Shown here in pieces: positions 9,154 to 54,982 of a DNA stretch of 64,000 nucleotides. A program made the position numbers and the translations under genes. The notes under the pieces are model-generated. The model was not told the origin of the DNA, did no database searches, and worked only from the letters and a program-made list of their open reading frames with translations. Where the stretch lies: assembly GCA_041658605.1 (NCBI GenBank), contig JBAZZU010000011.1, positions 3,300 to 67,299 of the forward strand. Direction: 5' to 3'. The stretch's first letter is position 1. Every line of letters begins with the position of its first letter. This DNA comes from Thermoleophilia bacterium (GTDB taxonomy: Bacteria > Actinomycetota > Thermoleophilia > BMS3ABIN01).

Positions 9154-9288
9154 ACATGCCCGGCAGTTGCGCGTGCCGATGTTGTTAGCGCCGCCAGAAA
9201 ACGGGAAACATAATTATGGATGCTTCATTGGTTTCTGGCATAATGTTCCGGGACGCGATAAGAGCGTCCTTTTATAAGGAGGTGAACT

Positions 9289-9513
9289 ATGCTGCGAGAT
9301 AGAGTTGAACAGGCTTTGGAGAAGATCAGGCCCGCCCTGCAGGCAGACGGCGGCGACCTTGAACTTGTGGATGTAACCGACGAAGGCAAAGTGACCGTAC
9401 GACTTACGGGAGCTTGTGGTAGTTGCCCGATGTCCCAGATGACACTCAAGATGGGTGTTGAGCAGAGACTTCGTCAGGAGGTTCCAGAAGTGGAGACGGT
9501 TGAGGCTATTTAG
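9289..9513 (+). CDS. NifU/Nfu C-terminal domain Fe-S scaffold protein
   Basis: IRPALQADGGD..GACGSCPMS motif; AAGGAGGTGA RBS. Confidence 0.92.
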   Translation: MLRDRVEQALEKIRPALQADGGDLELVDVTDEGKVTVRLTGACGSCPMSQMTLKMGVEQRLRQEVPEVETVEAI

Positions 9514-9565
9514 AAACGCTATTACAGCGCTTCTTGTGGCAACTGTTTCACAATTCCTGATTAAT

Positions 9566-9598
9566 AAAAAAAGCGGCTGAGAAATCGGCCGCTTTTTT
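9566..9598. terminator. Bidirectional intrinsic terminator between the nfu gene and the small peptide gene
   Basis: A7-GCGGCTGA-GAAA-TCGGCCGC-T6. Confidence 0.85.
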
Positions 9599-9615
9599 GT
9601 TCAGCATATAATTTA

Positions 9616-9732
9616 TCAGGGCTGTGGTGGTGGCGGCACAGTTATACTGCACGAAAAATTCACACAATCAAAAGTTATGTTCCTGATGTTATCCTTCTTC
9701 GTAAGAACAGGCTTTTCGTAAGTTGTCTTCAT
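9616..9732 (-). CDS. 38-aa RiPP-like precursor peptide with lasso-type leader (MKTTYEKPVLTKKDNIRNITFDCVNFSCSITVPPPPQP)
   Basis: Translated by hand; AAGGAGGTGG RBS 8 nt before ATG, upstream TATAAT boxes, downstream terminator; YxxPxL followed by Thr at the usual leader spacing. Confidence 0.75.
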   Translation of the reverse strand: MKTTYEKPVLTKKDNIRNITFDCVNFSCSITVPPPPQP

Positions 9733-9868
9733 TTATCCGGCCACCTCCTTCAGTCTGGCTGATTTCTGATTATAAAGCATGAGTATTATACTACGCTTTA
9801 GTTGATTTGAATAGACCCCAGTGGGTCACTGGGCTTCCAGTCAGTGGTTTCCGATGCCCGATTCTTTA

Positions 9869-11944
9869 CTACTCTTCTCTTTCTGCCTGGACCTGATCGA
9901 TGATCTTTTGAGCCAGATGTGCAGGGACTTCCATGTAATGGAGAAAATCCATCGTGTAATCGCCGCGGCCTCCCGTCATGGAACGCAGGTCTGGCGCATA
10001 TGTGAGCATTTCTGCCAGAGGCACCTCCGAGTTGATCTGGCTCATCCTGCCCGTTGGTTCCATTCCCAATACCTTGCCCCGGCGTGAGTTCATATCACCG
10101 ATAACATCCCCGACACTATCCTCGGGTACGGTTATATGAACTGTCATTATCGGTTCAAGGATCACTGGGGTGGCGTTAGCGACCGCCTTTTTCAGGCCCA
10201 TGGATGCGGCTATTTTAAAGGCCATCTCGGATGAATCCACGGGATGATGAGATCCGTCATAGACCTTCACCCTGATATCGACCAGGGGACTTCCGGATAG
10301 CTCACCCTCCTTCATCGCTTCGATGACGCCTTTTTCAACCGCCGGAATAAAGCCACGCGGTATTACGCCGCCGACTACATTGTCGACGAATTCAAAGCCT
10401 TCACCGCTGGTAAGCGGTTCAACCTCAAGCCAGCAGTCACCGTACTGGCCGCGTCCGCCCGTCTGTTTCTTGTATTTGCCCTGCGCTTTTGCGCCGTTAC
10501 GTATGGTTTCAAGATAGGGCACACGGGGCGGCTTAAGCTCTACCTCGACTCCAAAACGGCGCTTCATACGCTCTACAACCACCTCGACATGTACCTGGCT
10601 CAAGCCCGAGATTATGAGCTCGTTGGTCTGCGAGTCGCGTCTGACCACCAGCGTGGGGTCCTCTTCCTGCAGGCGCTTGAGCGATGTGCCGATCTTTTCC
10701 TCATCACCTTTGTTCTTTGGCTCCACGGCAAACGACATGACTGGATTAGGAAAATCCATAGCTGCGAAGGTGACTGATCCGCCCTCGTTGCATAGTGAAT
10801 CTCCCGTGTTGGTCGCCTTGAGCTTTGCGATAGCACCGATGTCACCGGGGCCGATAACATCCAGAGTGCTATTGTCTTTTCCCTGTAACCTCAGCAGCTT
10901 GCCGATATGCTCCTTCGTCTTGCTCACTGGATTATAGACATTGCTGTCGCTTCTGATCTCGCCGGAATATACCCTGAAAATGTTAATTCTGCCGCTGAAC
11001 GGGTCGGCCATCGTCTTGGCGACAAAGGCGGCCAGTGGACCATCGGATTTGCACTCGAGCATAATCTCATCACCGGATGACCCGTCTATGGCCTTTTTCC
11101 CTCCATGCTTCACGGGTGAGGGGATAGCATCGACAATAAGGTTCATCAATAAATCGATGCCGATGGTCTTTGTAGCGCTTCCTGCGCCCACTGGAAAGAC
11201 AGTCCCTGCCGCGACGCCTGCCTTGAGTGCGGAAAAAAGTTCTTCGTTACTCATGTCCTGACCTTCAAGATACTTTTCCATGACGGCGTCATCGTTTTCG
11301 GCGACCACATCCATGAGTTTATCGCGGTATTCCTCAACCTGGTCGGCCATTTCGGCAGGTATTTCAATGTCGCTGACTTTGCCATCTTCATAGTGGTAAG
11401 CCTTCTGGGTCAAGAGATCGATAACACCGCTGAAGTTGTCTTCCGCACCGATGGGAAGCTGTGCGGCGACAGCACCCTGTCCAAAGCTTTCCTGCAACTG
11501 CTCTACAGCCGCGAAGAAATCCGCACGTTCGCGGTCCATCATATTCACGAAAATCAGTCTGCTGACATCGTTGTCCTCACAGTTTTTCCAGAGCCGCTCG
11601 TGCTGTACCTCGACGCCATGGGTTGCGTTTACCGTGAGGATGGCACCTTCCACAACATGGAGAGCAGCGATTGTGTCAGCATGAAAACTTGGGTCTCCCG
11701 GGGTGTCGAAAATGCTAATGCTGCGGTCTCTCCAGGAGAAGTGACAAAGCGTGCCTGATATGGAGTGCTGGCGTTTCTTCTCATCATCATCCCAGTCGGC
11801 CACCGTGGTACCCTGATCGATAGAACCCAGGCGATTCACTGCGCCGGATTTGAAAAGGATGGCTTCGGTGAGGCAGGTCTTGCCGGTTCCACGGTGGCCG
11901 ACTACAGCTACGTTTCTTATTTTTGCGGGATCAACAGCGGGCAT
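9869..11944 (-). CDS. Elongation factor G-like protein (EF-G2 type)
   Basis: GHRGTGKT P-loop, DTPG, EEDPT, KKQTGGRGQYG, DSSEMAF, ILEPIM; divergent G motifs typical of EF-G2; start placed at ATG after AAGGAG. Confidence 0.9.
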   Translation of the reverse strand: MPAVDPAKIRNVAVVGHRGTGKTCLTEAILFKSGAVNRLGSIDQGTTVADWDDDEKKRQHSISGTLCHFSWRDRSISIFDTPGDPSFHADTIAALHVVEGAILTVNATHGVEVQHERLWKNCEDNDVSRLIFVNMMDRERADFFAAVEQLQESFGQGAVAAQLPIGAEDNFSGVIDLLTQKAYHYEDGKVSDIEIPAEMADQVEEYRDKLMDVVAENDDAVMEKYLEGQDMSNEELFSALKAGVAAGTVFPVGAGSATKTIGIDLLMNLIVDAIPSPVKHGGKKAIDGSSGDEIMLECKSDGPLAAFVAKTMADPFSGRINIFRVYSGEIRSDSNVYNPVSKTKEHIGKLLRLQGKDNSTLDVIGPGDIGAIAKLKATNTGDSLCNEGGSVTFAAMDFPNPVMSFAVEPKNKGDEEKIGTSLKRLQEEDPTLVVRRDSQTNELIISGLSQVHVEVVVERMKRRFGVEVELKPPRVPYLETIRNGAKAQGKYKKQTGGRGQYGDCWLEVEPLTSGEGFEFVDNVVGGVIPRGFIPAVEKGVIEAMKEGELSGSPLVDIRVKVYDGSHHPVDSSEMAFKIAASMGLKKAVANATPVILEPIMTVHITVPEDSVGDVIGDMNSRRGKVLGMEPTGRMSQINSEVPLAEMLTYAPDLRSMTGGRGDYTMDFLHYMEVPAHLAQKIIDQVQAEREE

Positions 11945-15850: not shown

Positions 15851-16786
15851 TCAGGTTCGGGAACTAATGACCAGAGCTTCGGCCAATTCGCCCAATCGTT
15901 GTGCGTTTTGTATGTGAACAAGCCACCTGTCAGGAATTGAAACAGCCCCATAGGTGCATCCGGCAAGCGCTCCAGTGACAGCTCCAATCGTGTCCGCGTC
16001 ACCACCCAGATTGACCGCCGCAATCAGCGTCTCTTCAAAGGAGGAGTGGTGCAGCCACAACCAGATGGAGCATTCCAGCGTATCGAGAACATATGCCGTA
16101 GGGGAGGGTTTACCGGCAGTCTTTTCTGAAAAAGCGTTCTGAGATCGGCGCAGGATCTCCGGCGAGGCTTCATTGATTTCATTGTATCTGTCAGTTGCGA
16201 GCTTTAATGCATCAAACCGTTCATTGCCTTTCAAAAGCTCGGCAATCAAAAGGTTCAGGAAGACACACGACCATTGGCAATCTGGGTGTGGGTGAGTAAT
16301 CCGCGAACTCAGGCGGCTGTTCCTGATCAATCGTGCAGAATCTTTATACTCCGACAACGCAACCGGAGCGCATCGCATCAGGGATCCATTCCCGGAACTG
16401 TCAGGATTCCGTGCCTGGGTTTCCAGGGCAGCCTTTTCCCAGTCTTCGCCGCCTGCGATCAGGCTTAGTACACTGGAAGTATGTCTGCCGACGCCCCTGC
16501 CATCCATTCTGAACCATTCGGTGAAACGGAATGCGATGTCGTCGGCGTCAAAACCACCACAGCTTGCGATACTTTCAGCCATAGCCATGGTTTGGGCGGT
16601 GTCATCGGTGGTTTCGCCCGGCCGCAGGTTCAACCTGCCGCTGCCTGTCATCTCGGTAAGCAGGCCAAAGCGGTTCCTGATTTCCATGCCGGTGCTGCCT
16701 TCAACTGGTGCGCCCAGCCCATCTCCCACGGCAAGTCCCAGCAGGCAGCCTGTCGCCCGATTAAGTAGCTCATCATTTTCGCGCAA
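15851..16786 (-). CDS. ADP-ribosylglycohydrolase family protein (DraG-like)
   Basis: GLAVGDGLG, TTDDT, GNGSLMR, THPHP, GGDADTIGA motifs. Confidence 0.9.
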   Translation of the reverse strand: MRENDELLNRATGCLLGLAVGDGLGAPVEGSTGMEIRNRFGLLTEMTGSGRLNLRPGETTDDTAQTMAMAESIASCGGFDADDIAFRFTEWFRMDGRGVGRHTSSVLSLIAGGEDWEKAALETQARNPDSSGNGSLMRCAPVALSEYKDSARLIRNSRLSSRITHPHPDCQWSCVFLNLLIAELLKGNERFDALKLATDRYNEINEASPEILRRSQNAFSEKTAGKPSPTAYVLDTLECSIWLWLHHSSFEETLIAAVNLGGDADTIGAVTGALAGCTYGAVSIPDRWLVHIQNAQRLGELAEALVISSRT

Positions 16787-16863: not shown

Positions 16864-18012
16864 TCAAATAATAGGGCTGCCATCCAAAAGGTCTGAAAAT
16901 ACAGCGGCTACATCCCCTTTTTCTTCAAACAGACGTATCTGTTTCTGCGCGCCGTTGCCTTCATCAAGGATTTCAGCAATTCTGCTAACATAGCTTTCAA
17001 TTCCGAGCTTCTCTTGCATATCACCGGTAAATTCGACCAGTGCCCTGATGATATCGGTGACCGGTATTTCTTTGCGTTTATTGAAATCCGCCAGGTTTCC
17101 GGCCAGTCCATAGCGCGCCGCGCGCCAGATATTCTCATCCACTTCACGCGTGTTCAATACTACCAGCGCCCTACCCTCGTCAAAGTCAGCCGAAAGTCTT
17201 GCTACCAGAGATACCACCAATGCGGATATCGCTAACGTGTCCCTGATATCACTCTGGCTGTCACAGATGCGTATCTCCAGCGTTCCGAACAGCGGATGGG
17301 GCCTCAAGCTCCACCAGACCTGGGTTGGCTCGGAGATGGAATTGGTCACGAACAGCGTGTCGATAAAAGTTGCATAGTCATCCCAGTCTCTGAAGGGACC
17401 GGGAATATTGCCCCGCGGAAACGACCTTGTAAAGATCTGTGCCCGTGTGGAATGAAGATAGGTATAGCGTCCTTCTGAAAAAGGGGAATTGGCTGACAGG
17501 GCAAGGATTGCCGGCATATAGCCGCGCAATGAGTTAAAAACGGCAATCATGCGTTCTCTTCCCCTGACCCCCACATGCGTGTGCATGCCATAAGTCAGGT
17601 TATGCCAGGCGCAGTAACGCACCCGTTCTTCAACTTCGCGGTAATGGTGGGTATCGAGGATGCGCTGCTTTTTCCAGTCAGAAAAGGGATGTGTTCCCGT
17701 CGTGCCAAGTTTTAAGCCCAGCTCCGAAGCGGATTCAGCCAGAAGGCGACGTTTTTGGGTTAGGTCCGCTTCCGCCGCCGCGATGCTTTCGCATTTGGCC
17801 GTGCTTATCTCAATTTCCGACGCAATCAGCTCGCCCTTAACAAATGTGCCCAGTTTTTTATGGGCGACAGCACTTAGATCTTCAAACCGGTTGGTCAATT
17901 CCAGGGTGTCGGCATCAAGAATCTGGAATTCTTCCTCAATCCCGATTGTAAGATCCAGGGAATTATCAAAGCTGGCGGCGGCTCTCTCCAGGCTGTAATG
18001 TTTCCAGGTCAC
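16864..18012 (-). CDS. YbdK-family carboxylate-amine ligase (GCS2, glutamate-cysteine ligase-like)
   Basis: IGIEEEFQI, GMHTHVG, SANSPF, WWSLRPHP, TLEIRICD. Confidence 0.9.
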   Translation of the reverse strand: MTWKHYSLERAAASFDNSLDLTIGIEEEFQILDADTLELTNRFEDLSAVAHKKLGTFVKGELIASEIEISTAKCESIAAAEADLTQKRRLLAESASELGLKLGTTGTHPFSDWKKQRILDTHHYREVEERVRYCAWHNLTYGMHTHVGVRGRERMIAVFNSLRGYMPAILALSANSPFSEGRYTYLHSTRAQIFTRSFPRGNIPGPFRDWDDYATFIDTLFVTNSISEPTQVWWSLRPHPLFGTLEIRICDSQSDIRDTLAISALVVSLVARLSADFDEGRALVVLNTREVDENIWRAARYGLAGNLADFNKRKEIPVTDIIRALVEFTGDMQEKLGIESYVSRIAEILDEGNGAQKQIRLFEEKGDVAAVFSDLLDGSPII

Positions 18013-19427: not shown

Positions 19428-19805
19428 ATGAGCGAATCCAAAGTCAAGTTCACATACTACATGGGGGACACCCCTCCTCAGTTTGCCAACCGCAGCGAAG
19501 AGGAATGTGCGAAGATCCTGGACTATTATTCAATCCCCTGGATGTATGAACCCCGCACTTTTGTACTGGAACGGGACCAGGAGGGAAATGTCATCGAAGC
19601 GTTCACGCCCGACTTCTTCCTGCCGGAACAAAATCTTTTCGTAGAATTAACCACCATGAAGCAGGCCCATGTAACCAAGAAAAACATGAAGATTCGCAAG
19701 GTTAAGGAAAGGTTTCCAGAGGTCAACATAAAACTTTTTTACAAGAGGGATTTTCTCAAACTGGCCCAGAAGTATGATCTGTCCGTCGAAAGCGATCAAA
19801 AGTAA
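19428..19805 (+). CDS. Small PD-(D/E)XK-like (T7 endonuclease I-like) protein
   Basis: W.YEP..F..FTPDFFLPEQNLFVELTT motif; directly upstream of hpt. Confidence 0.55.
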   Translation: MSESKVKFTYYMGDTPPQFANRSEEECAKILDYYSIPWMYEPRTFVLERDQEGNVIEAFTPDFFLPEQNLFVELTTMKQAHVTKKNMKIRKVKERFPEVNIKLFYKRDFLKLAQKYDLSVESDQK

Positions 19806-20472: not shown

Positions 20473-21081
20473 CTACGGATTGACAGGTGTTGTCCGGGTG
20501 GTTGTGCCTGTTACAGTCTTTGAGGTATCAGCCTCGGCGGGTAATATCGAAGCCACTTTCTGCTCGAAGGTCTTTTCCATCAACGGGCCGATGAAGAAAT
20601 CCTTGATATTTCCCTCTGCATCGATGAAAAAAGTTGTAGGAATTCCAGAGAAGGAAACCTTGCCGGCTTTTTGATATGAATAAACGATATCTCCGTTTGG
20701 ATCCATGCCAATGGGAAACTCAAGGCCGTGTTTTTCAGCAAATGCCCTCTGGCTGTCTGTATCGTCTTTTACCGCAAGCCCGAAAAAGACAACCTTGTCT
20801 TTATATTTCTCATACATTTTCGCGAGAACGGGGGCTTCCTGCTCGCACGGTCCGCACCAGGAAGCGGCGAAGTTCAATACAACGGGTTTGCCTTTGAGGT
20901 TTGCATTATAGGAGACCCTGTCTCCGGAAAGAGTCGTCACCGTGAAGTCCGGCGCGTATTTGGCGGGCGCCGCGTTGCCTGAAGTGGAGCTACCGGAGTT
21001 ATTGCCGCCGCAGCCAGCGATCAATACCGCGATGAGAGTAATCGCCGCCGCAGATAGCAGGATTTTCTTGTTCATAAACAT
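20473..21081 (-). CDS. TlpA/ResA-family thioredoxin-like lipoprotein
   Basis: Lipobox [24 protein letters not shown]. Confidence 0.9.
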
Positions 21082-21113
21082 GATGAGATCAAAAGGCTTT
21101 TATAAAGAAACTT

Positions 21114-21131
21114 GCCCGGCGCCTGCCGGAC
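21114..21131 (-). promoter_or_regulatory. Candidate bacterial SECIS hairpin
   Basis: GTCCGGC-AGGC-GCCGGGC starting 11 nt after the UGA; apical loop 18 nt from UGA with G in loop position 2. Confidence 0.65.
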
Positions 21132-21133
21132 CA

Positions 21134-21355
21134 TTAGATTCCTCAGCTTCCGCCGAAGCCTACCGAAACATCGCCATCCCGCACGATAACCGGTACTGCC
21201 GCGACACCAGCCTTACTTACCGCCTCTTCCTTTATCGCAGGATCAGAAGTAACATCCCGTTCTTCGAATGCTACTCCCTTCTGGTTGAGATCATCTTTGG
21301 CCGCCGCGCAGTACGGGCAACCGGGTTTTGTGTAAATAACCACATCTTCCGTCAT
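21134..21355 (-). CDS. Glutaredoxin-like Uxx-star (seleno)protein ending GFGGS-U-G-I-stop
   Basis: CPYC active site; in-frame TGA (21143-45) followed by GGA ATC TAA; GAAGGAGG RBS. Confidence 0.78.
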
Positions 21356-21536: not shown

Positions 21537-22295
21537 ATGAGCGACAGGACGCCGATCATCGCTGGCAACTGGAAGATGTACAAAACAAGCTCTGAAGCTC
21601 AAGCGTATGTCTCGGAATTCCTGGCGCTGGTGGATGGGGTGTCTGATGTTGAGATCGTTATCTGTCCGCCCTTCACATCGCTTGCCGATGTCGTCCGCAT
21701 GACACAGGGCAGCAACGTCCTGGTATCGGCCCAGAATATGCATTACGAAGACGAAGGCGCATTCACTGGGGAGATATCGGCATCGATGCTCACTGACTTG
21801 GGAATCACGGATGTAGTGCTCGGGCATTCGGAGCGGCGTGAATACTTTTGTGAAAATGACGCGGACCTGGCAAAAAAGATAACAAAGGCGCTGAGCGCCA
21901 ACCTGAGGCCGATATTGTGCGTCGGGGAAAGTGACGAGGATCGGGAAGCCGGCAGGACAGAAGAGAAGCTTAAGGGACAGCTGGTCAAAGGACTTGCCGA
22001 CGTCAGCGCAGACCAGCTTGCGGGAATGGTGGTTGCATACGAGCCCATCTGGGCCATCGGAACAGGAAAGACCGCGACTCCCCAGATAGCTCAGGATACG
22101 ATCCACTTCATCCGGGAGACCCTGGCGGCCGAATTTGACGCCGAGGCAGCCGCTCAGGTCAGGATTCTCTATGGCGGAAGTGTCAAGCCGGATAATATCG
22201 CTGAACTCATGAGCGAGGATGATATCGATGGCGCTCTTGTCGGAGGGGCCAGCCTCAAAGCATCAGATTTTGCGCAGCTAGTCAATTATAAGTAA
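21537..22295 (+). CDS. tpiA: Triosephosphate isomerase
   Basis: AGNWKM, GHSERR, YEPIWAIGTG, YGGSV, LVGGASL. Confidence 0.98.
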   Translation: MSDRTPIIAGNWKMYKTSSEAQAYVSEFLALVDGVSDVEIVICPPFTSLADVVRMTQGSNVLVSAQNMHYEDEGAFTGEISASMLTDLGITDVVLGHSERREYFCENDADLAKKITKALSANLRPILCVGESDEDREAGRTEEKLKGQLVKGLADVSADQLAGMVVAYEPIWAIGTGKTATPQIAQDTIHFIRETLAAEFDAEAAAQVRILYGGSVKPDNIAELMSEDDIDGALVGGASLKASDFAQLVNYK

Positions 22296-24416: not shown

Positions 24417-25268
24417 GTGAAAATAACAGGCACAACAAAGTTGCTGGGCATTCTGGGTGACCCTGTATCCCACAGCCTGTCTCCACTGATGCATAATCGT
24501 GCGTGTGAGGAGTTGGGTCTGGATATCTGTTATGTGCCATTGAACGTCAAGGCAGATCAGCTTGCTATGGCCATCGACGGCCTCAGGGCGATGCGGTTTC
24601 TGGGCGCCAATATAACAATTCCACACAAGGTATCGGCGCTGGCCCTAATGGACAGACTGGCGGATAGCGCTAGAAACGTCGGAGCGGTAAATACAGTAGT
24701 TAACAAGAACGGATTGCTCACAGGCCATAACACCGATGGCGCCGGCTTCATCCGGTCTCTGGAGGATGCGACATCGATCGATTATGCTGCTACATCCGTT
24801 GTCCTGCTGGGAGCCGGCGGTGCTGCCAGGTCGATAGCCTTTGCGTTGGCAGAAAAAAAAGTATCCAGAATTGTGATCATCAACCGTACGCAGGAGCGCG
24901 CTGTTGAACTCAAAAGGTTGCTCGAACATGATTTTTCGTCATTGGAGATAGTTGTAAAGGGGACAGATGATGAATACGGAGATGATATTTCTGCTGGAAA
25001 ACTAGTGATAAACGCGACTTCAACGGGTCTGGAGGCCGACCTAAAGAGTGCACCGGTGTGGGTCGATAGATTAACGAAAGATCACGTTGTCTGCGACATA
25101 ATTTATAGGGCACAGGAAAAAAATCCACTCCTGGTCGCAGCGCGAGCCAAAGGGGCAACTACATTGGGCGGACTCGGCATGCTTCTTCATCAAGGAGTTA
25201 TTGCGTTCCATTTATGGACCGGAATAGAGCCGCCAGTCGATGTTATGAGGAATTCGATTGAATCCTAG
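24417..25268 (+). CDS. aroE: Shikimate dehydrogenase
   Basis: HSLSP, NITIPHK, GAVNT, NTDG, GAGGAA, ML.HQG; start placed at GTG after GGAGG. Confidence 0.95.
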   Translation: MKITGTTKLLGILGDPVSHSLSPLMHNRACEELGLDICYVPLNVKADQLAMAIDGLRAMRFLGANITIPHKVSALALMDRLADSARNVGAVNTVVNKNGLLTGHNTDGAGFIRSLEDATSIDYAATSVVLLGAGGAARSIAFALAEKKVSRIVIINRTQERAVELKRLLEHDFSSLEIVVKGTDDEYGDDISAGKLVINATSTGLEADLKSAPVWVDRLTKDHVVCDIIYRAQEKNPLLVAARAKGATTLGGLGMLLHQGVIAFHLWTGIEPPVDVMRNSIES

Positions 25269-26973
25269 CGAACTTACATCCCGTACACCCCGCAAGAAAT
25301 TACAGCCTATCGGCGAGATACTCGTCGCCAAGGAACTAATTTCTCGCGAACAGCTTGACGAAGTCCTGGAAAAGCAGAAGGACTCGCCGAAGCGACTCGG
25401 TGAGATCCTCGTCGATGACGGCATCCTGACGCAGGAGCAGCTGAATATCGCCCTGGCGGAAAGACTTGGTGTCGAGAGCCTTGGTCTGGATGAATACAAC
25501 ATCGATTCTCTGGCCGCGACAATGATACCGGAGAAGCTGGCCAGGCGTTATGGCGCCATACCGGTAAAGTTCGTGGATGAAAATACCCTGCTGGTTGCGA
25601 TGGTCGATCCCACAAACGTGTTTGCAATCGATGACCTGCGCATGATGACCGGCTATGACATCAAGCCGGCAATCGCATCGACGGAAGATGTTTTCAATCA
25701 GATTTCAAAAATTCATCGGATGGGCGATTCTGCCAGTAGCCAGGTCGAAGAAGATGATGAGGACTTGCTTGGCGAAACCTCAGTAGACGCTGATATACGC
25801 GAGGTGGCCTCTGAAGCTCCGATCGTCAAACTGGTCAATGGCGTCATCAGCCAGGGCGTGGACGATGGGGCGAGTGACCTTCATTTCGAGCCTCAGGAGA
25901 AAGAACTGGCAATCCGTTTCAGGATTGACGGCGTGCTCCATGCTGTTATGTCGGTGCCAAAGCGCATGCAGTCGGCGGTGCTTTCGCGCCTCAAGGTCAT
26001 GGCTGATATCGACATAGCCGAGAGGCGCATACCCCAGGATGGCCGCATAGGATTAATAGTTGGAGGCAAGCCCATCGATATACGTGTTGCCTCTATGCCA
26101 ACGGTTTATGGTGAGAAGATAGTTCTGCGAATTCTTGACAAGAGCAGTGTCATGCTCAATCTCTCCGATCTTGGTTTCGCCGAGAAGGCGTTGAAGCGTT
26201 ACGAACGATCGTACACGAAACCTTATGGAGCCATGCTGGTCACGGGCCCGACCGGTAGCGGCAAATCCACGACTCTTTATGCGACCCTGAACGTTCTCAA
26301 TTGCAAGGAGAAGAACATCATCACTGTTGAGGACCCTGTTGAATACAGGCTTGCGGGCATCAACCAGACACAGATCAATCCCAAGGCAGGCCTGACGTTT
26401 GCTTCCGGGCTCAGGGCGATCCTGCGCTCAGATCCGGATATCGTGATGGTTGGTGAGATCCGTGACAAAGAAACCGCACAGATAGCTATCGAGTCAGCGT
26501 TAACCGGGCATCTTGTATTGAGCACTTTGCACACAAATGACGCGCCGGGTGCTTTGACGCGTCTTACTGAGATGGGGATCGAGCCATTCCTGTCAGCATC
26601 AGCCATCGAGTGTGTTTTAGCGCAGAGACTGGCAAGGCGCCTCTGCTCAAACTGCAAGGAACCATATCATCCTACGGATGAAGCCCTGGCTCAGAACGGT
26701 TTCCCCCAGGAAGTCATAGGCAAAGACATCACACTGTATCGTTCCGCTGGTTGTCCCCGCTGTAACAACACGGGATATAAGGGAAGATTTGGAATTTATG
26801 AAGTCATGCTTGTGAGCGAAGCTATCGAGCGGTTAACGGTGGAGAGAAAAAGTGCCGATGAGATTTCGAGAGTAGCTCAGGCTGAAGGAATGGTTACTCT
26901 GCGTGAAGATGGCATAGATAAAGTCATTCAGGGCATAACATCGATAGAAGAGATAGCCAGGGTCATCATTTGA
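25258..26973 (+). CDS. pilB: Type IV pilus assembly ATPase PilB with N-terminal MshEN-like domain
   Basis: IGEILVAKELIS..LGEILVDDGIL repeats, ASDLH, PQDG, GPTGSGKST, EDPVEY, GEIRD, two CxxC zinc motifs. Confidence 0.95.
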   Translation: MNPSELTSRTPRKKLQPIGEILVAKELISREQLDEVLEKQKDSPKRLGEILVDDGILTQEQLNIALAERLGVESLGLDEYNIDSLAATMIPEKLARRYGAIPVKFVDENTLLVAMVDPTNVFAIDDLRMMTGYDIKPAIASTEDVFNQISKIHRMGDSASSQVEEDDEDLLGETSVDADIREVASEAPIVKLVNGVISQGVDDGASDLHFEPQEKELAIRFRIDGVLHAVMSVPKRMQSAVLSRLKVMADIDIAERRIPQDGRIGLIVGGKPIDIRVASMPTVYGEKIVLRILDKSSVMLNLSDLGFAEKALKRYERSYTKPYGAMLVTGPTGSGKSTTLYATLNVLNCKEKNIITVEDPVEYRLAGINQTQINPKAGLTFASGLRAILRSDPDIVMVGEIRDKETAQIAIESALTGHLVLSTLHTNDAPGALTRLTEMGIEPFLSASAIECVLAQRLARRLCSNCKEPYHPTDEALAQNGFPQEVIGKDITLYRSAGCPRCNNTGYKGRFGIYEVMLVSEAIERLTVERKSADEISRVAQAEGMVTLREDGIDKVIQGITSIEEIARVII

Positions 26974-27006
26974 TCCTTTAGGGCAATAGAAAGAGGGGGA
27001 AGCAGA

Positions 27007-28074
27007 ATGGACCTTGTCGATATACTTGTCGAAGTCCTCGAACGAAACGCCTCGGATCTTCATCTGGCGGTAGGTTCTCCGCCAGTAATCAGGATTTCAG
27101 GGAAACTTATCAGGCTGGATTATCCCCGCCTTACCAGCAATGACACCAGAGACCTGATTTACAGCATTCTCTCTCAGGATCAGCGGCAGAGGATAGAGAA
27201 TGAGTGGGAGATCGATTTTTCATATTCTGTTCCAGGCAGGGCGCGTTTTCGTGTTAATGCCTATTTTCAGCGGAACAGTCTAGGGGCCGCCTTCAGATTG
27301 ATACCGGCTCAGATAAAGAGTGTCAAAGAGCTAATGCTGCCCGAAGTAATCCACAAGATGGCTAACAAGCCAAGAGGTTTTGTTATTGTCACGGGTCCTA
27401 CGGGCAGCGGTAAGTCAACGACGCTTGCGGCGCTGATCCAGGAAATAAATGAAACCCGCGAAGAGCACATCATGACGATTGAAGATCCCATCGAGTTTCT
27501 GCATCGCCATATAAAGTCGGTAGTAAACCAGCGTGAAGTTGGAACAGATACAAAATCATTCAATCGGGCATTGAAATCAGTTTTACGCCAGGATCCGGAT
27601 GTGATTCTGGTTGGTGAGATGAGAGACACCGAGACCATGCAAACTGCCTTGACGGCGGCTGAGACTGGTCACCTGGTGTTTGCCACCCTGCACACGCAGG
27701 ATGCTCCCCAGACCATCGACCGCATCATCGACGTCTTTCCGCCCCACCAGCAAAGCCAGATCCGGGTACAGCTGGCATCTACGCTGATGGGAGTCTGTAC
27801 GCAGCAGCTTTTACCCACGATTGATGGTACCTCACGCGTGCCTGCCTGCGAGGTTCTTATACCGACGCCGGCTGTAAGGAATCTTATTAGAGAGGCCAAG
27901 ACGCATCAGATCTATTCGGTGATGCAGACTGGAGCCCAATTCGGGATGCAGACCATGGACAGTTCTCTCGCGGAACTGTTCAGGAGAAACAAGATCACCA
28001 AGGAAATGGCGATTCGCAGATCGAGTAATCCAGAAGAGCTGGAACGTCTGATGATGGGAAGACAGGTAGCATAA
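27007..28074 (+). CDS. pilT: Type IV pilus retraction ATPase PilT
   Basis: ASDLHL, GPTGSGKSTT, EDPIEF, DPDVILVGEMRD, TLHT, AVRNLIRE. Confidence 0.96.
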   Translation: MDLVDILVEVLERNASDLHLAVGSPPVIRISGKLIRLDYPRLTSNDTRDLIYSILSQDQRQRIENEWEIDFSYSVPGRARFRVNAYFQRNSLGAAFRLIPAQIKSVKELMLPEVIHKMANKPRGFVIVTGPTGSGKSTTLAALIQEINETREEHIMTIEDPIEFLHRHIKSVVNQREVGTDTKSFNRALKSVLRQDPDVILVGEMRDTETMQTALTAAETGHLVFATLHTQDAPQTIDRIIDVFPPHQQSQIRVQLASTLMGVCTQQLLPTIDGTSRVPACEVLIPTPAVRNLIREAKTHQIYSVMQTGAQFGMQTMDSSLAELFRRNKITKEMAIRRSSNPEELERLMMGRQVA

Positions 28075-28113
28075 GGCCCCAATCAGGGAAGGGAAGAAGG
28101 CAGGTGTGGATCT

Positions 28114-29331
28114 ATGAATACTTTTGTATATAAAGTTCGCGATATTCGCGGTATAGCCAGCAAGGGAGAGCTTGAGGCAGACAGCAGGGCTGCGGTTGCC
28201 GCAGAGCTTCGCGGCAAGGGTTACACGGTAGTTGATATTAATGAAAAGAGCGCCGGCACCTCTTTCAGTTCGTTATTGAGCAGCTCACAGCGGATCAAGT
28301 CAAAGCATATAACAGTGTTTTCGCGCCAGTTTGCGACGATGATCAACTCCGGCCTCGCGCTTCTCCGCGCCCTGTATATCCTGGAAAACCAGACTCAGAA
28401 CACCAAATTCAAAGCCGTTATATCAGAGGTTCGCAGTGATGTTGAGGGCGGCTCAGCACTTTCGGATTCGATGGAGAAGCACCCGAGAGTATTTAACCGT
28501 CTCTATGTAAGCATGGTGAGGGCGGGAGAGGTGGGCGGTATCCTGGACGAAACGCTCGAAAGAGTTGCAAATCAGCTGGAAGCCGAGGACAGTCTCAAGC
28601 GCATGGTTAAGTCGGCAATGGTTTATCCGCTGCTGATCGCCGTATTTGCCCTGCTTGTGATGATGGCGATGATGCTGTTTATCATTCCGATCTTTTCCAA
28701 GATGTACGCCGACCTTGGAAGCCAGCTGCCGATGCTTACTCGTATTATGGTTAATATCAGTGACACCCTGAAAAGCGTCTGGGGCATCTTTATCTTTGCG
28801 GCTATTGTTGGTGCCATATACGGTTTGGGAAGGCTTAAAAGGACACCTCAGGGAACCGCTGCGTGGGATCGCGCCAAGTTGCATATCCCGATGGGTATTG
28901 GAGAAATCATTCGCAAGCTGGCAATGGCCAGATTCTCCAGAACTCTGAGCACACTTGTATCCAGTGGTGTTCCTATCCTGCAGGCTATTGAAATAACCGG
29001 TGATACGGCAGGCAACGTTGTCGTATCTGACGCGATGGTCTCTGTTAAGGCGGGTGTGAAGGAAGGCCGCCCGATGTCCGAATCCCTCGTAAAAGTCAAC
29101 GTCTTTCCTCCGATGGTCACGCAGATGATCTCTGTTGGAGAAGAAACGGGAGCTGTAGATGTAATGCTCACAAAAATCGCTGATTTCTATGAGGACGAGG
29201 TTAACGCCTCCGTGAAGTCACTGACATCCATACTTGAGCCGATAATGATGATGGGTGTAGGCGGCCTGGTCGGCGTTATTGTAATTGCTCTCTATCTGCC
29301 GATTTTCAACCTCATGTCCGTTGTCAAATAG
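28114..29331 (+). CDS. pilC: Type IV pilus platform protein PilC (GspF family)
   Basis: FSRQFATMINSGL, GEVGG, SAMVYP, VGEETG. Confidence 0.95.
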   Translation: MNTFVYKVRDIRGIASKGELEADSRAAVAAELRGKGYTVVDINEKSAGTSFSSLLSSSQRIKSKHITVFSRQFATMINSGLALLRALYILENQTQNTKFKAVISEVRSDVEGGSALSDSMEKHPRVFNRLYVSMVRAGEVGGILDETLERVANQLEAEDSLKRMVKSAMVYPLLIAVFALLVMMAMMLFIIPIFSKMYADLGSQLPMLTRIMVNISDTLKSVWGIFIFAAIVGAIYGLGRLKRTPQGTAAWDRAKLHIPMGIGEIIRKLAMARFSRTLSTLVSSGVPILQAIEITGDTAGNVVVSDAMVSVKAGVKEGRPMSESLVKVNVFPPMVTQMISVGEETGAVDVMLTKIADFYEDEVNASVKSLTSILEPIMMMGVGGLVGVIVIALYLPIFNLMSVVK

Positions 29332-29401
29332 TCGTGAGGAAGAAAAATAGTCGGCAGGATGTAGCTGACATTACAAATGCGCCGTGAGATTGGCAGATTA
29401 A

Positions 29402-30238
29402 ATGTCTGGCAAAATTGAGATTCAAACCGATGTTTGCGAAGGGAATGGCGTCATAACCGGCGCTGTCCTGGATTTTCCGCGCAATGAAAAGGCAGAGCGG
29501 AAAAACGAGTCGCTTACCGCGGAATATCAGGTCTCCCGAGACCAAGCAGTCCTGGAGAAGATAATTACTCGCAACCAGGGGCTTCTGCACGCTGTTCTGA
29601 GACGCTTCAAATACTTCCCTGATCCATATGAGGATCTTCTGCAGGTTGCAAATCTTGGATTGATCAAGGCTGTGCAAAGATTTGACTGTAATCGTGGTGT
29701 CGGATTCTCCAGTTACGCAACTGCGCTTGTTGACGGCGAGGTTCGCCATTACCTCAGGGACAATGTTCTTATGCGTCAGCCGAGGTGGCTCAGGGCGGCA
29801 GAGAAACGTATCGAAGACGCCTCAATAGAGCTTAATCGTAAACTGAAGCGTCCCCCGACACTTAAGGAGCTTGCACTCGAGGTCAACATTTCCGAAGAGG
29901 GCATTCTGGAGATACTGAGAGTGGTAGCTTCGGTAGGACTCCATCCCGTTGATGATATGGACTCGCATGAGGGTGTTAATGCTCAACCGGACGCAAACGT
30001 GGTTCGTTCACTCCATTATGAGTCCTTTGTGCTGCCTATCGAAGACAAGATTGCGCTACAGGAAGCCCTGGATGCGCTGAGCTCACTTCATAAGAAGATC
30101 GTCTACCTCCTTTTTTACAAGGATCTGACACAAACGCAGGTCGCCAGGGAGCTGGGTCTCTCCCAGCGAAAGGTGTCCCGGGAATCAGCAAAGGCACTCG
30201 GGCGGCTCAAGACTGTCATGAACACGAAGATCTTTTAG
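29402..30238 (+). CDS. SigB/SigF/SigG-family RNA polymerase sigma factor
   Basis: Region 2 EDLLQVANLGLIKAVQRFD..FSSYA..GEVRHYLRD, region 4 TQTQVARELGLSQRKVSR. Confidence 0.9.
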   Translation: MSGKIEIQTDVCEGNGVITGAVLDFPRNEKAERKNESLTAEYQVSRDQAVLEKIITRNQGLLHAVLRRFKYFPDPYEDLLQVANLGLIKAVQRFDCNRGVGFSSYATALVDGEVRHYLRDNVLMRQPRWLRAAEKRIEDASIELNRKLKRPPTLKELALEVNISEEGILEILRVVASVGLHPVDDMDSHEGVNAQPDANVVRSLHYESFVLPIEDKIALQEALDALSSLHKKIVYLLFYKDLTQTQVARELGLSQRKVSRESAKALGRLKTVMNTKIF

Positions 30239-30250
30239 AAAATGCTAAAG

Positions 30251-30276
30251 CTTTATTCGGCAGACGCCGAATAAAG
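30251..30276 (+). terminator. Hairpin after the sigma gene
   Basis: CTTTATTCGGC-AGAC-GCCGAATAAAG; no U tract. Confidence 0.45.
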
Positions 30277-30346
30277 GCCCGTGTTCACGGCTTTACCCCG
30301 GCGGGAAGTGTCTAGGAAAAAAGCAGTTGGGTAGTATAGGGGTGAA

Positions 30347-30425
30347 GGTGAAAAAGGCAAACCACTCGTAAGGGTGGGGCGCAAAGCTACAGGACCAGGA
30401 ATACTTGGTCGGCTGGGCTGCCACC
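30347..30425 (+). ncRNA. c-di-GMP-I (GEMM) riboswitch aptamer
   Basis: P1 GGTG/CACC; GGCAAAC-CACTC-GTAA-GGGTG P2; GCGCAAAGC junction; P3 ending GGGCTGCC; G20 and C92 equivalents present. Confidence 0.92.
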
Positions 30426-30444
30426 AGAGGTTCAGGAAGATATG

Positions 30445-30482
30445 GATCTGTGGTTTGCCATCAGGCCGCAGATCTTTTTTTT
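30445..30482 (+). terminator. Riboswitch expression-platform terminator
   Basis: GATCTGTGGTTTG-CCAT-CAGGCCGCAGATC followed by T8, upstream of the pilin RBS. Confidence 0.88.
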
Positions 30483-30528
30483 GTGGTCTGGCGAAAATAA
30501 TAAACAAAATTGAAAAGGAGGTGACAAC

Positions 30529-30921
30529 ATGATTTCGAAACTTGGAAAAAGAATGCAGGTTAAGGGTGAAGGTGGTTTTACTCTGATCGAACTGTTGGTG
30601 GTTATCATCATCATTGCTATCCTGGCAGCGATCGCCATTCCGATGTACTTAAGCCAGCGTCAGAAGGGCTGGAACGCCAACATGCAGAGTGATCTACGTA
30701 ACGCCGCTGTCGCGGAGGAGAGTTACTTCACGGACAATGCAGCTTATACGAACGTGATTGCGAATCTGGAGCTTCAGGGATTCAATCCTTCAGCTAACGT
30801 GACGCTCGCAGTGGCCTCTGCAGATGCTGCCGGATATTGCATTAATGCAACATATACCGGTTACGCGACCAGATATCATCTTAATAGTACAGATGGTGAT
30901 CCCCGGACAGGTACTTGCTAG
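30529..30921 (+). CDS. pilA: Type IVa major pilin
   Basis: GG|FTLIELLVVIIIIAILAAIAIP class III signal, C-terminal Cys pair, AAGGAGGTG RBS. Confidence 0.93.
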   Translation: MISKLGKRMQVKGEGGFTLIELLVVIIIIAILAAIAIPMYLSQRQKGWNANMQSDLRNAAVAEESYFTDNAAYTNVIANLELQGFNPSANVTLAVASADAAGYCINATYTGYATRYHLNSTDGDPRTGTC

Positions 30922-30969
30922 CGAGCCTGACTGAGGTAATTCGAAGCTAGTGTGAGAACAAAATAATAT

Positions 30970-31001
30970 GATGATGGCGGGCCATTCGGCCCGCCATCAT
31001 C
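30970..31001 (+). other. Perfect 14-bp stem-loop between the two pilin genes
   Basis: GATGATGGCGGGCC-ATTC-GGCCCGCCATCATC; no U tract. Confidence 0.8.
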
Positions 31002-31073
31002 TGTAAGAGGCTGATTAACTATCACCCGTTCAGATGCCGATTCAATAGTCGATATCCAGCGGGGGGAGAAAAA

Positions 31074-31472
31074 ATGAAAATGCGCGCTTTCCGGGAAAGC
31101 CTGTCCAGTCGGGACGGCTTTACTCTTATCGAGTTACTGGTCGTAATCATCATCATTGCCATTCTTGCCGCGATAGCCATTCCTGTTTATCTTACCCAGC
31201 GCCAGAAAGCCTGGGATGCCAACAGTAAAAGTGATCTGAATACCGCCGCTGTTGCCCAGGCGACTTATAACGCGGATTTCGGTGTTTATACCGGCGACGA
31301 GGCCGATCTTAAAGCCCGGGGTTATAACAGGTCCGCGAATATTACACTCTCAATTCCCACGAGCGGCGCCACGTTCTGTATGGAGACCTTCCATAGCGGT
31401 GATCCATCAAGGGTCTGGTTCGTGGATAGTGGTTCGGGCAGTCCGAACCCAACGCTTGGTAATTGTCCCTGA
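31074..31472 (+). CDS. Second major-type pilin paralogue
   Basis: DG|FTLIELLVVIIIIAILAAIAIP; C-terminal Cys pair. Confidence 0.92.
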   Translation: MKMRAFRESLSSRDGFTLIELLVVIIIIAILAAIAIPVYLTQRQKAWDANSKSDLNTAAVAQATYNADFGVYTGDEADLKARGYNRSANITLSIPTSGATFCMETFHSGDPSRVWFVDSGSGSPNPTLGNCP

Positions 31473-31808
31473 TATCCAGATCTTAATCCGGTCCGGCAAT
31501 TTCGGATACACTGCTGATACACCGATTCACCAGCGTATTTCCTTAAGCTCAGGTTTCATCTGCCAGGTTATTTTGCGCAGGCTCCGGGACCGTCAGCAGC
31601 CTTTCTGATGAGGGTGAGATTCTAAGTAATCAGCTTCCCCTCTTCCCGCCTGGACCGCCGCATGTACCTTCTTCCAGTCCTTTTCTAATAGAACCCATCA
31701 ATGATTATTTCAAGGCGCCTGGGAATGTGCCCAGGGAAACTGGACCTGATCAGACCATATAGGAATCAACCCGGCTGTCGATGCAACTATAGAAGGGATT
31801 GTTGCACC

Positions 31809-32390
31809 ATGTCTGTTTGCGTTCGACATAGCGTTTGTTTGTTGCCATGTGGAGTCCAGTATTCCTCGTGGGCATTTAGAAGTACCCAGAAGGCCTCTTC
31901 AGCAATAAATCGTTCATCAATCTCCATACGCTCGCATGATGCGCGTGGCTTCACAATGATCGAGGTAATGATCACCGTTGCGCTGATGAGCATCCTCATG
32001 GTTATGACGGCGGGTGCGCTCACCTACTATTTTTCGGGTAAGGCGCTGGACACATCGACGAGGGAGCTGACTTCCCAGATAAGAGAGGCACAGACACTTG
32101 CGGTGTCTACCGGAAACACATACAGGATAGATTTCAGCAATCCGGACAGGAAGAGCTATCAGATGCAATACAGGCAGGGTGGCAACTGGGTAAATGTCAG
32201 GGCAGCTCAGCGGCTTCCAGGTGACACTGAGTTCAGCTCCGGTTCACTGCCATCTTTTGGCGGAGATACATATATGGATTTCTATCCCAGGGGAACAACT
32301 GAAAGCGGCCAGATAGTGGTTCACGACCGTTTTGGCAGAAGCAAAACCGTAAGCGTGAACGGTGAGACCGCCAACGTCAACGTTAACTAG
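31809..32390 (+). CDS. FimT/GspH-like minor pilin
   Basis: RG|FTMIEVMITVALM at about 31947-31990, F.P.GT motif near C-terminus; start uncertain (ORF open from 31701). Confidence 0.8.
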   Translation: MSVCVRHSVCLLPCGVQYSSWAFRSTQKASSAINRSSISIRSHDARGFTMIEVMITVALMSILMVMTAGALTYYFSGKALDTSTRELTSQIREAQTLAVSTGNTYRIDFSNPDRKSYQMQYRQGGNWVNVRAAQRLPGDTEFSSGSLPSFGGDTYMDFYPRGTTESGQIVVHDRFGRSKTVSVNGETANVNVN

Positions 32391-32404
32391 AAAAGGGTAG
32401 GAGA

Positions 32405-34144
32405 GTGAGATCAATTTTTAAAAAAATAATAAATCACCGGGTGGGCCACGAGGGCATTGCTACGGAAGAAGGATTGACGCTAATAGAGATAATGGTGTCG
32501 ATGATGATCTTCCTCGTGATCTCTGTGGGTGTCGCCGGATCTCTGATCACCGGTTTGCGCACGACGGTTAGCACGCGACTGTCTACTATGGGCAAGGATG
32601 TCGCCCAGCATAGAATCGAGGAGATGCGCGCTCGCGTCTTCTATGTTCCCTATAGTTCCGACCCTAACGTGGGGACGACAAACGACATCGACCTGCTTGA
32701 TATTTATTATCCGAACCTGAACACATATTCGCAGACAGATGCTCAGGGGTGGAGCGGCCGCTATTATTCCGGCAGCAACGCGCATTATACGAAAGTGTCG
32801 CCTGCGGACAGCCAGGGTATCGTGACCACTGTGGAGATGTGGTTTGTCGACAGCAACCGTTACGTGGTTGTTCCTCCGAGTTCATATGATTCCAACATCG
32901 CTGATTCAGATAAACCTCCTACTGAGCTTGTCCAGGTCAAGGTCACAACTGCCTGGGCTGATCGCGCGGGCGAAAACACTTATGTTCTGGATTCCCTGAT
33001 CTCCTCTACCGGCCAGTCTCCGAGCGAGGTAGCTGGTTGTGTCAACGCCTCAAACAGCCGGGTCGACGCGATTGGCCTGATATTGACGGCTTCCAGTGGA
33101 ACGGCTGATCCTTACACAGCCCTGGTGAATGGCAAAATGGGTGAAGCACATGTAGAGGCAAATTATGGCTGCGTACCTGATATAAGGGTCAACGCTACCG
33201 GGGGTCAGATGACTACCGCTGCCGGAAGCGTTTATACGGGCGCAACTGTATCCGTCTCCGGACCGCCTGCCGTAGATCAGACAGTAGGTCCCACAAGTGT
33301 GGGCCCACCGGCAGGATATCCCAAACCGACGATCAGTAATACCCGAGCCCGAGGCCAAATCGAGGATGAAAATGGGTTGATGGAAATCGAGGCTGAGGGT
33401 GAAGCGATAGTCGGGACCCAGTCACTTCAGTTAAACGAGGTCAGTGGAACACCGACTGACTCTCTGTCCGGATTTAAACGATGGGATTTTCTCAATCCGA
33501 CGATTACGGCGGTCGGTAGTAACGGCGGGGATGATGGTGAGGACATCGAGGCCGAAATCGAGCAGGAGAACGGACATACAACGGGCAAGGCTGAGGTACG
33601 TTACCAGACGATAAATATCCTGCCGTTGCAGAAGTGGCCGACATCGACCACGACAAACCCATCCGCCGCGCAGGGTATCGTCTTTATCCGGGATTTTGTA
33701 GCGAATGCTCAATCAAGCGTTGAGGGAACGCCAGGCAGTGCATACAACACCTTGACGTATGCATTTACTTTAGGGATGTTCAACCCCAACAAGTCAGGGT
33801 GTACATATTCGAGTACGGGTGACGCGTGCTATGACCTTTATAGCATCAGCCCGTCAAATCCCATCCAGACCGCCGCACCCCTCAGCAGTTCGAACTACAG
33901 GTTGCAGAATGCTTTGATGACGGAATGGTACAGCTATACGGCTGAAGATATCAGCAATGCGATGTATGCGACTGCTGATGGAAAAAACGCAGCGATAACC
34001 GTGGATGCCCTCGTAAAGATTTCAGCCAAGTTCGGTACTGAGATCAGATGGAAGACAAGCAATAACGCTATAACCCTTGTCAGCCAGGGCGGCCTTCAGC
34101 AAGCCTGGATCGGGGCTTTCGATATCTCGCTAGAGAAACAATAG
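32405..34144 (+). CDS. PilV-like minor pilin with large C-terminal extension
   Basis: EG|LTLIEIMVSMMIF, VQVKVTTAW motif, then about 380 aa Ser/Thr/Gly-rich beta-type region. Confidence 0.8.
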   Translation: MRSIFKKIINHRVGHEGIATEEGLTLIEIMVSMMIFLVISVGVAGSLITGLRTTVSTRLSTMGKDVAQHRIEEMRARVFYVPYSSDPNVGTTNDIDLLDIYYPNLNTYSQTDAQGWSGRYYSGSNAHYTKVSPADSQGIVTTVEMWFVDSNRYVVVPPSSYDSNIADSDKPPTELVQVKVTTAWADRAGENTYVLDSLISSTGQSPSEVAGCVNASNSRVDAIGLILTASSGTADPYTALVNGKMGEAHVEANYGCVPDIRVNATGGQMTTAAGSVYTGATVSVSGPPAVDQTVGPTSVGPPAGYPKPTISNTRARGQIEDENGLMEIEAEGEAIVGTQSLQLNEVSGTPTDSLSGFKRWDFLNPTITAVGSNGGDDGEDIEAEIEQENGHTTGKAEVRYQTINILPLQKWPTSTTTNPSAAQGIVFIRDFVANAQSSVEGTPGSAYNTLTYAFTLGMFNPNKSGCTYSSTGDACYDLYSISPSNPIQTAAPLSSSNYRLQNALMTEWYSYTAEDISNAMYATADGKNAAITVDALVKISAKFGTEIRWKTSNNAITLVSQGGLQQAWIGAFDISLEKQ

Positions 34145-34158
34145 ACAAGAGGACAGGC

Positions 34159-34764
34159 ATGAGCAGATTATTGAAAAGGGTTGAATTTGAGCGCAGCGGA
34201 CGTGAGCAGGGATTCACTCTGATCGAGATGCTGGTTTCGATCTCGATCCTGACCGTAATCATGGCGGGCATGTTCACTTTCCTGTTCGGCGCGAGCAGGC
34301 ACTGGAACACAGGCCAGAACAGCGCGGACATGACCGAGAACGCGAGGTTGGGATTAAACCGCATGACGCGCGAGATAAAGCAGTCAACCCAGGTTACGGA
34401 TGCCCAGACGGCGCAGGTCACATTCACGGTCAATTTTGGCAGCGGTAGCGAGACGATCACATATGGCTTTTCACCCGGCTCTAATGGTGAGCCTGGAGAA
34501 GTCTGGCGAAATACCTCAGCATCACCAGGAAATATAACTCTTATAAGCAATGTAGAGAGCGTCCAGTTTGTCTATTACGGGAATGATTACAAATGCGACA
34601 TCAATAATGACGGCATCATCAGGGATTTAGAGCTCCAGGGTTGCGGCGGCAGCGCGGTATCCAAGATTGCAAGGGTGGATTTCATTCTTAACATGAGAGC
34701 CGGCAATGAATCGGTCCAGACTTTTGCGGATCAGGCGTGGCTGAGAAATCGAACGGCAGACTAA
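34159..34764 (+). CDS. PilW/GspJ-like minor pilin
   Basis: QG|FTLIEMLVSISIL, LNRMTREIK helix. Confidence 0.85.
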   Translation: MSRLLKRVEFERSGREQGFTLIEMLVSISILTVIMAGMFTFLFGASRHWNTGQNSADMTENARLGLNRMTREIKQSTQVTDAQTAQVTFTVNFGSGSETITYGFSPGSNGEPGEVWRNTSASPGNITLISNVESVQFVYYGNDYKCDINNDGIIRDLELQGCGGSAVSKIARVDFILNMRAGNESVQTFADQAWLRNRTAD

Positions 34765-34775
34765 TGAGGGGTGAA

Positions 34776-54951: not shown

Positions 54952-54982
54952 TAAAAGTTCCAGCAGTCAGCCAGGTGACATC

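Follow-up and report, generated by a model that had tools for sequence, protein, structure and literature searches.

The Uxx-star family comprises small glutaredoxin-like proteins described by Zhang and Gladyshev (2008) and by Haft and Tolstoy (2025, mSystems); both are cited in the passages of the review PMC13188914 that treat the family, where it is presented as computationally predicted. In our literature searches, no experimental evidence for any Uxx-star member was found, and nothing relevant on selenocysteine (Sec) in Thermoleophilia. The features that the family shares with the protein described here are the small glutaredoxin fold, an N-terminal CxxC motif, Sec as the third residue from the end, and a SECIS element in the 3' UTR. 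A glutaredoxin-fold selenoprotein is also found in clostridia (UxxC; Kim et al. 2011, as cited in the same passages); there Sec replaces the first active-site Cys, whereas the protein described here has an intact CPYC motif and an extra, predicted Sec at the C-terminus. The YruB and NrdH redoxins are similar to it in size, fold, CxxC site and sequence (30-40% identity), but they have a C-terminal helix and lack Sec.

A parallel from outside this group is the Gly-Cys-Sec-Gly arm of animal thioredoxin reductase. In this arm, too, Sec is located near the end of a flexible tail, with the SECIS past the stop codon, and the presumed role of the tail is electron transfer to or from a dithiol centre that is buried. 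Animal thioredoxin reductase differs in being a flavoprotein of unrelated fold, with a Cys beside Sec and a eukaryotic SECIS, and is not homologous.

At the RNA level, the closest described element is the fdhF-type SECIS of Escherichia coli, generalized as bSECIS (Zhang and Gladyshev 2005, via PMC13188914), with a stem about 11 nt past the UGA and a small loop that has G followed by G or U. [quoted passage not shown]

In this study, the window is the whole analysed stretch of 64,000 nucleotides. We conclude, with a probability of about 0.9, that a minus-strand gene in the window that appears to encode a 70-residue "glutaredoxin" is a predicted 73-residue Uxx-star selenoprotein, the UGA codon of which has been misread as a stop.

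The window gene and its family

The candidate gene and its elements are the following.

21134..21355, minus strand: predicted coding sequence of the Uxx-star glutaredoxin-like selenoprotein, 73 residues, M1...S70-U71-G72-I73, then TAA
21363..21367, minus strand: Shine-Dalgarno sequence GGAGG, 7 nt 5' of the ATG, by direct reading of the sequence
21308..21319, minus strand: CPYC active-site motif, residues 13-16
21143..21145, minus strand: in-frame UGA, predicted Sec71, the third residue from the C-terminus
21137..21142, minus strand: post-UGA sense codons GGA (Gly) and ATC (Ile), followed by the predicted true stop TAA at 21134-21136

The uninterrupted open reading frame (21355..21146, minus strand) starts with the ATG at 21355 and encodes 70 residues up to the TGA at 21145-21143. 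Its product begins with MTEDVVIYTKPGCPYC and ends with VGFGGS; the complete translation ahead of the TGA is MTEDVVIYTKPGCPYCAAAKDDLNQKGVAFEERDVTSDPAIKEEAVSKAGVAAVPVIVRDGDVSVGFGGS. Gene callers of every source database stop the protein at this point. Residues K10, P11, G12, C13, P14, Y15 and C16 are invariant across 30 aligned homologues. The Pfam search assigned the protein to Glutaredoxin (PF00462, 5.7e-19), and the AlphaFold (AF2) model (pLDDT 87) has a beta-alpha-beta-alpha-beta-beta fold without the usual C-terminal helix. Foldseek comparisons align the model with glutaredoxins of archaea, clostridia and E. coli, and with NrdH, at TM scores of 0.8-0.86 (0.83-0.86 for glutaredoxins); the best structural matches include the solved Clostridium structures cGrx1 and cGrx2. 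The window corresponds to positions 704-64703 of a 68-kb contig from a landfill metagenome (assembly ENA ERZ27247322), and related sequence occurs in groundwater metagenomes. The locus sequence matches DNA metagenome runs only, and no RNA run. The related metagenome-assembled genome JBAZWE01 encodes a protein that is 90% identical.

For family scoring, Cys was used in place of Sec. The protein scores 100.9 bits with the NCBIfam model NF041212 (Uxx-star family glutaredoxin-like (seleno)protein; curated cut-off 66) and covers profile positions 1-70 of 70. The 70-residue form scores 94.1 bits, and thus the appended C-G-I adds 6.8 bits. The cut-offs of Uxx-star families 1-3 are missed (68.4 versus 72 bits for NF041114, 60.8 versus 100 for NF041211, and 50.5 versus 97 for NF047338), as are those of YruB (TIGR02196, 66.4 versus 88.55 bits) and NrdH (TIGR02194, 47.6 versus 85.75 bits). 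Since it stays below the cut-offs of the Uxx-star family 1-3 models, which are the narrower ones of "equivalog" or "exception" type, the protein belongs to the broad NF041212 subfamily, with no named sub-type. NCBI applies the Uxx-star name to homologues from Thermoleophilia bacterium that are 71-76% identical to it. An earlier note on this DNA had proposed both a TGA followed by two sense codons and TAA, and membership of the Uxx-star family: the sequence does read TGA GGA ATC TAA, and the family assignment stands on the NF041212 score over the full profile.

The truncated form prevails among the relatives. In a collection of 5.8 billion proteins, ...GFGG[S/G] is the shared endpoint of 120 of 120 homologues among the matches listed. 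When 1.84 billion cluster representatives were searched exhaustively, most of the matches were either truncated relatives of the Sec type or YruB-like proteins that possess a C-terminal helix; in this library, the closest relatives that are not truncated have YruB-like C-termini of the type ...VGFD...L..LL.

The C-terminal tail and its Cys forms

According to the mechanism that we propose, the protein would be a minimal thioredoxin/glutaredoxin fold with an N-terminal CPYC site, in which the short tail GFGGS-Sec-Gly-Ile takes the place of the C-terminal helix. The tail Sec would probably serve as a third redox centre by forming a selenenylsulfide with the N-terminal active-site Cys, like the GCUG tail of animal thioredoxin reductase. 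Reduction would probably proceed via an enzyme of the thioredoxin reductase type, as for NrdH and YruB-like redoxins. We infer this Cys-Sec relay by analogy and from one gene that encodes a Cys form.

Homologues with Cys at the UGA position, which the earlier note had suggested looking for, were found and are rare: about three among 268 proteins, and none among 157 genomic loci. The protein P0216 ends with VGFGGS-C-S-F and is aligned to the window protein through Cys71; P0242 and P0142 likewise end with G-C-x-x(-x). The P0216 locus is as follows.

2066-3225 of L167 (NCBI GCA_016209495.1, contig JACQVX010000098.1): locus of the Cys form P0216

The active site of P0216 is CSYS instead of CPYC; the second Cys has been lost and the tail Cys retained. 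The start of its gene overlaps the end of a gene for a 312-residue thioredoxin reductase with a CATC site. By-eye inspection revealed no hairpin 3' of the P0216 stop codon. As a single case, P0216 suggests redox pairing of the first active-site Cys with the tail Cys or Sec, and its gene context suggests a thioredoxin reductase-type enzyme as the reductant.

The tail could also have another role in a genuine selenoprotein, with Sec acting as a ligand for a metal, a metalloid or some other substrate and not as a partner of CPYC in a relay. This idea has appeared in the literature, and the lack of Cys in place of Sec in all 157 genomic relatives suggests chemistry beyond that of Cys. We consider it unlikely for this protein, as CPYC is invariant and the dithiol glutaredoxin fold is kept, no metal-handling genes flank the selenoprotein gene in the window, and the loss and retention of Cys residues in P0216, coupled to a thioredoxin reductase gene, fit a redox pair.

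Recoding, the SECIS hairpin and the Sec machinery

We compared the DNA of relatives retrieved from metagenomes and from species-representative genomes, 160 in all; 157 of them have a family-like length. The first stop codon is TGA in all 157, which belong to many phyla. The real (second) stop codons are TGA in 83, TAG in 39 and TAA in 35 relatives. The tail following the first TGA has two codons in 92, three in 41 and four in 23 relatives (156 of the 157), and encodes peptides such as G-[IVFM], A-I, T-V-H, T-V-H-D and similar. Glycine at codon +1 is encoded by all four of its codons (GGC 25, GGA 23, GGT 7, GGG 6), and codon +2 includes synonymous sets for Ile, Val and Phe. Such third-position variation at +1 and +2 under protein-level constraint indicates that the post-UGA codons are translated.

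The sole exception in tail length is the metagenome contig Ga0315287_10024325 (L093), which has 20 sense codons after the TGA (...GFPYT-TGA-GGARGRTRW...) and may be a decayed copy or have a different architecture. In another relative (L013, 9808-9820), the tail reads U-G-C-stop, which places a Cys two residues past Sec.

We calculate that chance alone would place another in-frame stop two to four codons past the first in about 12% of cases. On the window sequence alone, the recoding pattern is only mildly unusual; it is far beyond chance because 157 relatives repeat it. A search of the window for a second selenoprotein via in-frame TGA junctions yielded out-of-frame noise only.

The UGA is followed by a hairpin.

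21114..21131, minus strand: predicted bacterial SECIS hairpin GUCCGGC-AGGC-GCCGGGC, with a 7-bp stem and the loop AGGC, wholly in the 3' UTR

The stem consists of six G-C pairs and one G-U pair, and G occupies loop positions 2 and 3. The stem starts after a spacer of 11 nt from the UGA, and the loop is 18 nt from the UGA. The 35-nt segment from the UGA to the hairpin has a folding energy of -13.7 kcal/mol (z = -2.5), and 3 of 200 shuffled sequences fold equally well. With a loop of 4 nt (A-G-G-C), a stem of 7 bp, a distance of 18 nt and this energy, the hairpin falls within the bSECIS ranges as given in the review. Its difference from the fdhF-type element is twofold: it is entirely untranslated, because only two codons come after the UGA, and its loop has GG and no U.

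Similar hairpins are present throughout the family. In 143 of the 157 relatives (91%), a stem of 5 bp or longer bears a loop that starts 14-30 nt past the UGA and contains GG or GU. Among the 826 TGA-ended open reading frames from the same fetched loci that were used as controls, 82 (10%) have a comparable hairpin with a GG or GU loop, and 23% have any comparable hairpin. The most frequent UGA-to-loop distance is 18 nt (42 of 153), the window value, and the most frequent UGA-to-stem distance is 11-12 nt. The stems of individual lineages are unrelated in sequence and are still paired: GUCCGGC/GCCGGAC, UGCGGCA/UGCCGCA, GGGCGCG/CGCGCCC, UGACGGG/CCCGUCA, GAUGAC/GUCAUC and CGCAUU/AAUGCG. Loop types include CGUG[C/U/A] (52), GGUC (30), GUC (20) and AGGC (6, the window included). 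The AGGC loop is common to the window and its five closest relatives (L005, L006, L007, L011 and L087) and is devoid of the U that comes after G in most relatives. Slightly more distant Thermoleophilia (L008, L009, L012, L013 and L016) have the same stem with the loop GGUC.

A covariance model was built on 12 in-register sequences and run over 1.23 Mb. It gave 29 matches at E <=1, and 27 of these are exactly at Uxx-star UGAs. The other two (L080, 15875-15916, E 0.05; L052, 10862-10932, E 0.97) are not downstream of a coding UGA and were rejected as false positives. The sole match in the window is at 21111-21145 on the minus strand (47 bits, E 5e-8). The alignment based on this model has 97.4% of its cells paired, with compensatory changes on both sides in six of the seven stem pairs, but this alignment is fitted to the model, and the stems listed above, found independently, are the more honest display. 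None of 500 shuffles reached the observed values, and sliding the partner strand by 1-3 columns reduced pairing to 21-46%. When 52 downstream regions were aligned by MAFFT alone, RNAalifold predicted no structure, because the hairpin sequences are too divergent to align. The Rfam search, up to E 10, returned no SECIS-like match. The earlier note had described a SECIS with a 7-bp stem, a loop 18 nt from the UGA and G in its second position; each of these details is confirmed, and covariation is now added to them. We regard the window hairpin as a predicted SECIS and not a terminator.

According to this prediction, the UGA at 21145-21143 would be decoded as Sec during translation, as the comparative sequence evidence indicates. 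The hairpin in the 3' UTR would offer its G-rich apical loop to SelB-Sec-tRNA(Sec) while the UGA is in the ribosomal A site, and termination would follow two codons past the UGA, at TAA.

Genes of the Sec machinery were looked for on the 68-kb contig that includes the window. The search, which combined ARAGORN, Pfam tables of neighbouring genes, NCBIfam on the last eight open reading frames, and tblastn with E. coli SelA, SelB and SelD, found no selA, selB, selD or tRNA-Sec on this contig. No tRNA-Sec was detected by ARAGORN across the loci of all fetched relatives, and regular expressions for SelD and SelA motifs gave nothing real in the locus flanks. In 11 Chloroflexota-type loci, tblastn with E. 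coli SelB located a selB gene that immediately precedes the Uxx-star gene and has the same orientation. Nine of these selB genes are full-length (L020, L021, L023, L032, L059, L092, L099, L104 and L113), and two are cut at the contig end (L112 and L155); for instance, in L023 selB occupies 8033-9958 and the glutaredoxin-like gene about 9971-10207. Two of the 11 SelB proteins were confirmed by TIGR00475 (363 and 342 bits versus the cut-off of 242). The selB-adjacent members, of Chloroflexota or Anaerolineae type, have tails of the type ...GFHGY-U-G-V. For the organism of the window, we infer Sec decoding from the gene itself.

These observations bear on the simplest alternative, an ordinary 70-residue glutaredoxin that ends at the UGA, with the hairpin acting as a terminator or mRNA-stabilising stem-loop and the TAA as a chance back-up stop. 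The residue-70 ending is the one called in every source database, and a simple scan rates the window hairpin as terminator-like, with 7 pairs and the tail AAGTTTCTTT. Yet a T-rich tail follows only 7 of the 143 family hairpins, and hence the U tract is not a conserved feature of the element; it is missing in the close relatives L005, L006, L007, L008, L009 and L011. An ordinary stop would also have to be TGA in every one of the 157 relatives, although TGA makes up 53% of the real stops in the family and is the rarest stop in the window: the 40 other window genes with Pfam or NCBIfam support end with TAG (17), TAA (14) or TGA (9). The synonymous variation of the two to four post-UGA codons, the 6.8 bits that the tail adds to the family score, the 11 loci with an adjoining selB and the existence of a Cys form likewise argue against a true stop, and we consider it very improbable. 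The least credible possibility is that the UGA specifies one of the standard amino acids (Trp, Cys or Gly) through genome-wide reassignment or leaky read-through: a recent report describes the reassignment of UGA to Trp in the Eggerthellaceae, among the Actinomycetota (PMC13462651), but the nine TGA-ended window genes end at their expected lengths, so UGA is not reassigned genome-wide, the same UGA is present in relatives of many phyla, and a SelB-type hairpin at the canonical distance and the linkage to selB in Chloroflexota-type loci speak for Sec.

Genomic neighbourhood and implications

The predicted selenoprotein gene has two conserved neighbours.

20473..21081, minus strand: TlpA/ResA-like thiol-disulfide oxidoreductase, starting 52 nt past the TAA, with a LIAGC lipobox and a WCGPC site
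21537..22295, plus strand: triose-phosphate isomerase gene, divergent; a conserved synteny anchor outside the system

The TlpA-like protein matches AhpC-TSA and Redoxin, and scores under the cut-offs of the ResA, DsbE and TlpA models. Apart from the window, 14 related Actinomycetota loci have this arrangement of a divergent triose-phosphate isomerase gene, the selenoprotein gene and a same-strand TlpA/ResA-like gene. In these 14 loci, the TlpA-like gene is located 40-190 nt downstream, and its product is 40-88% identical to that of the window. This conserved adjacency supports a predicted operon of the selenoprotein and TlpA-like genes and is in line with the suggestion of the earlier note that the two genes are co-transcribed. 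The selenoprotein gene product is cytoplasmic, and its TlpA-like partner is exported. The AGGC loop and the pairing with a TlpA-like lipoprotein gene distinguish the window clade from the wider Uxx-star family.

Several other window loci were recorded. A YbdK/GCS2-type carboxylate-amine ligase gene, encoding a relative of glutamate-cysteine ligase (TIGR02050, 257 bits, above the cut-off), is located about 3 kb from the selenoprotein gene, beside an ADP-ribosylglycohydrolase gene (16864-18012 and 15851-16786, both on the minus strand); the ligase may be relevant to the low-molecular-weight thiol of the organism. A type IV pilus or type II secretion-like cluster (25258-36104, plus strand) contains two T2SSE ATPases, T2SSF, a sigma-70 family gene, several N-methyl prepilin-type proteins, PilX_N, and a 567-residue open reading frame without a family match. 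Two tandem paralogues of about 600 residues (53146-56779, plus strand) each combine an N-terminal "two-CW" domain with GGDEF and HD-type phosphodiesterase domains. Two open reading frames, at 19428-19805 (plus strand, 125 residues) and 62651-63616 (minus strand, 321 residues), have no NCBIfam match, and the 125-residue one has no Pfam match either.

A more far-reaching scenario would make the Sec tail obligate in landfill and groundwater Thermoleophilia, the locked pairing with the TlpA/ResA-like lipoprotein an undescribed selenium-dependent route of reducing power to the envelope, and the AGGC loop a shifted recognition rule for SelB. We speculate on it as a long shot that is quite improbable as a whole.

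The result for this locus is the re-annotation of a mis-terminated gene; the family has already been described and is included in the NCBI annotation rules, so this is not a discovery of a new family. The points that may be new are the apparent scarcity of Cys forms, the loop variant AGGC in this clade, the conserved TlpA pairing in Thermoleophilia, the selB adjacency in Chloroflexota, and the trxB-coupled CSYS/Cys form. Source databases store the window protein and its homologues (120 among the matches listed) cut at residue 70, and thus without the probable catalytic selenocysteine. The 109 distinct hairpins constitute a well-sampled set of bacterial SECIS elements located only in the 3' UTR, and could serve as training data for SECIS predictors. 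Leads on the role of the Uxx-star tail come from the Cys form linked to trxB and from the pairing with TlpA, and one gene makes the use of Sec inferable for an uncultured actinobacterial lineage.
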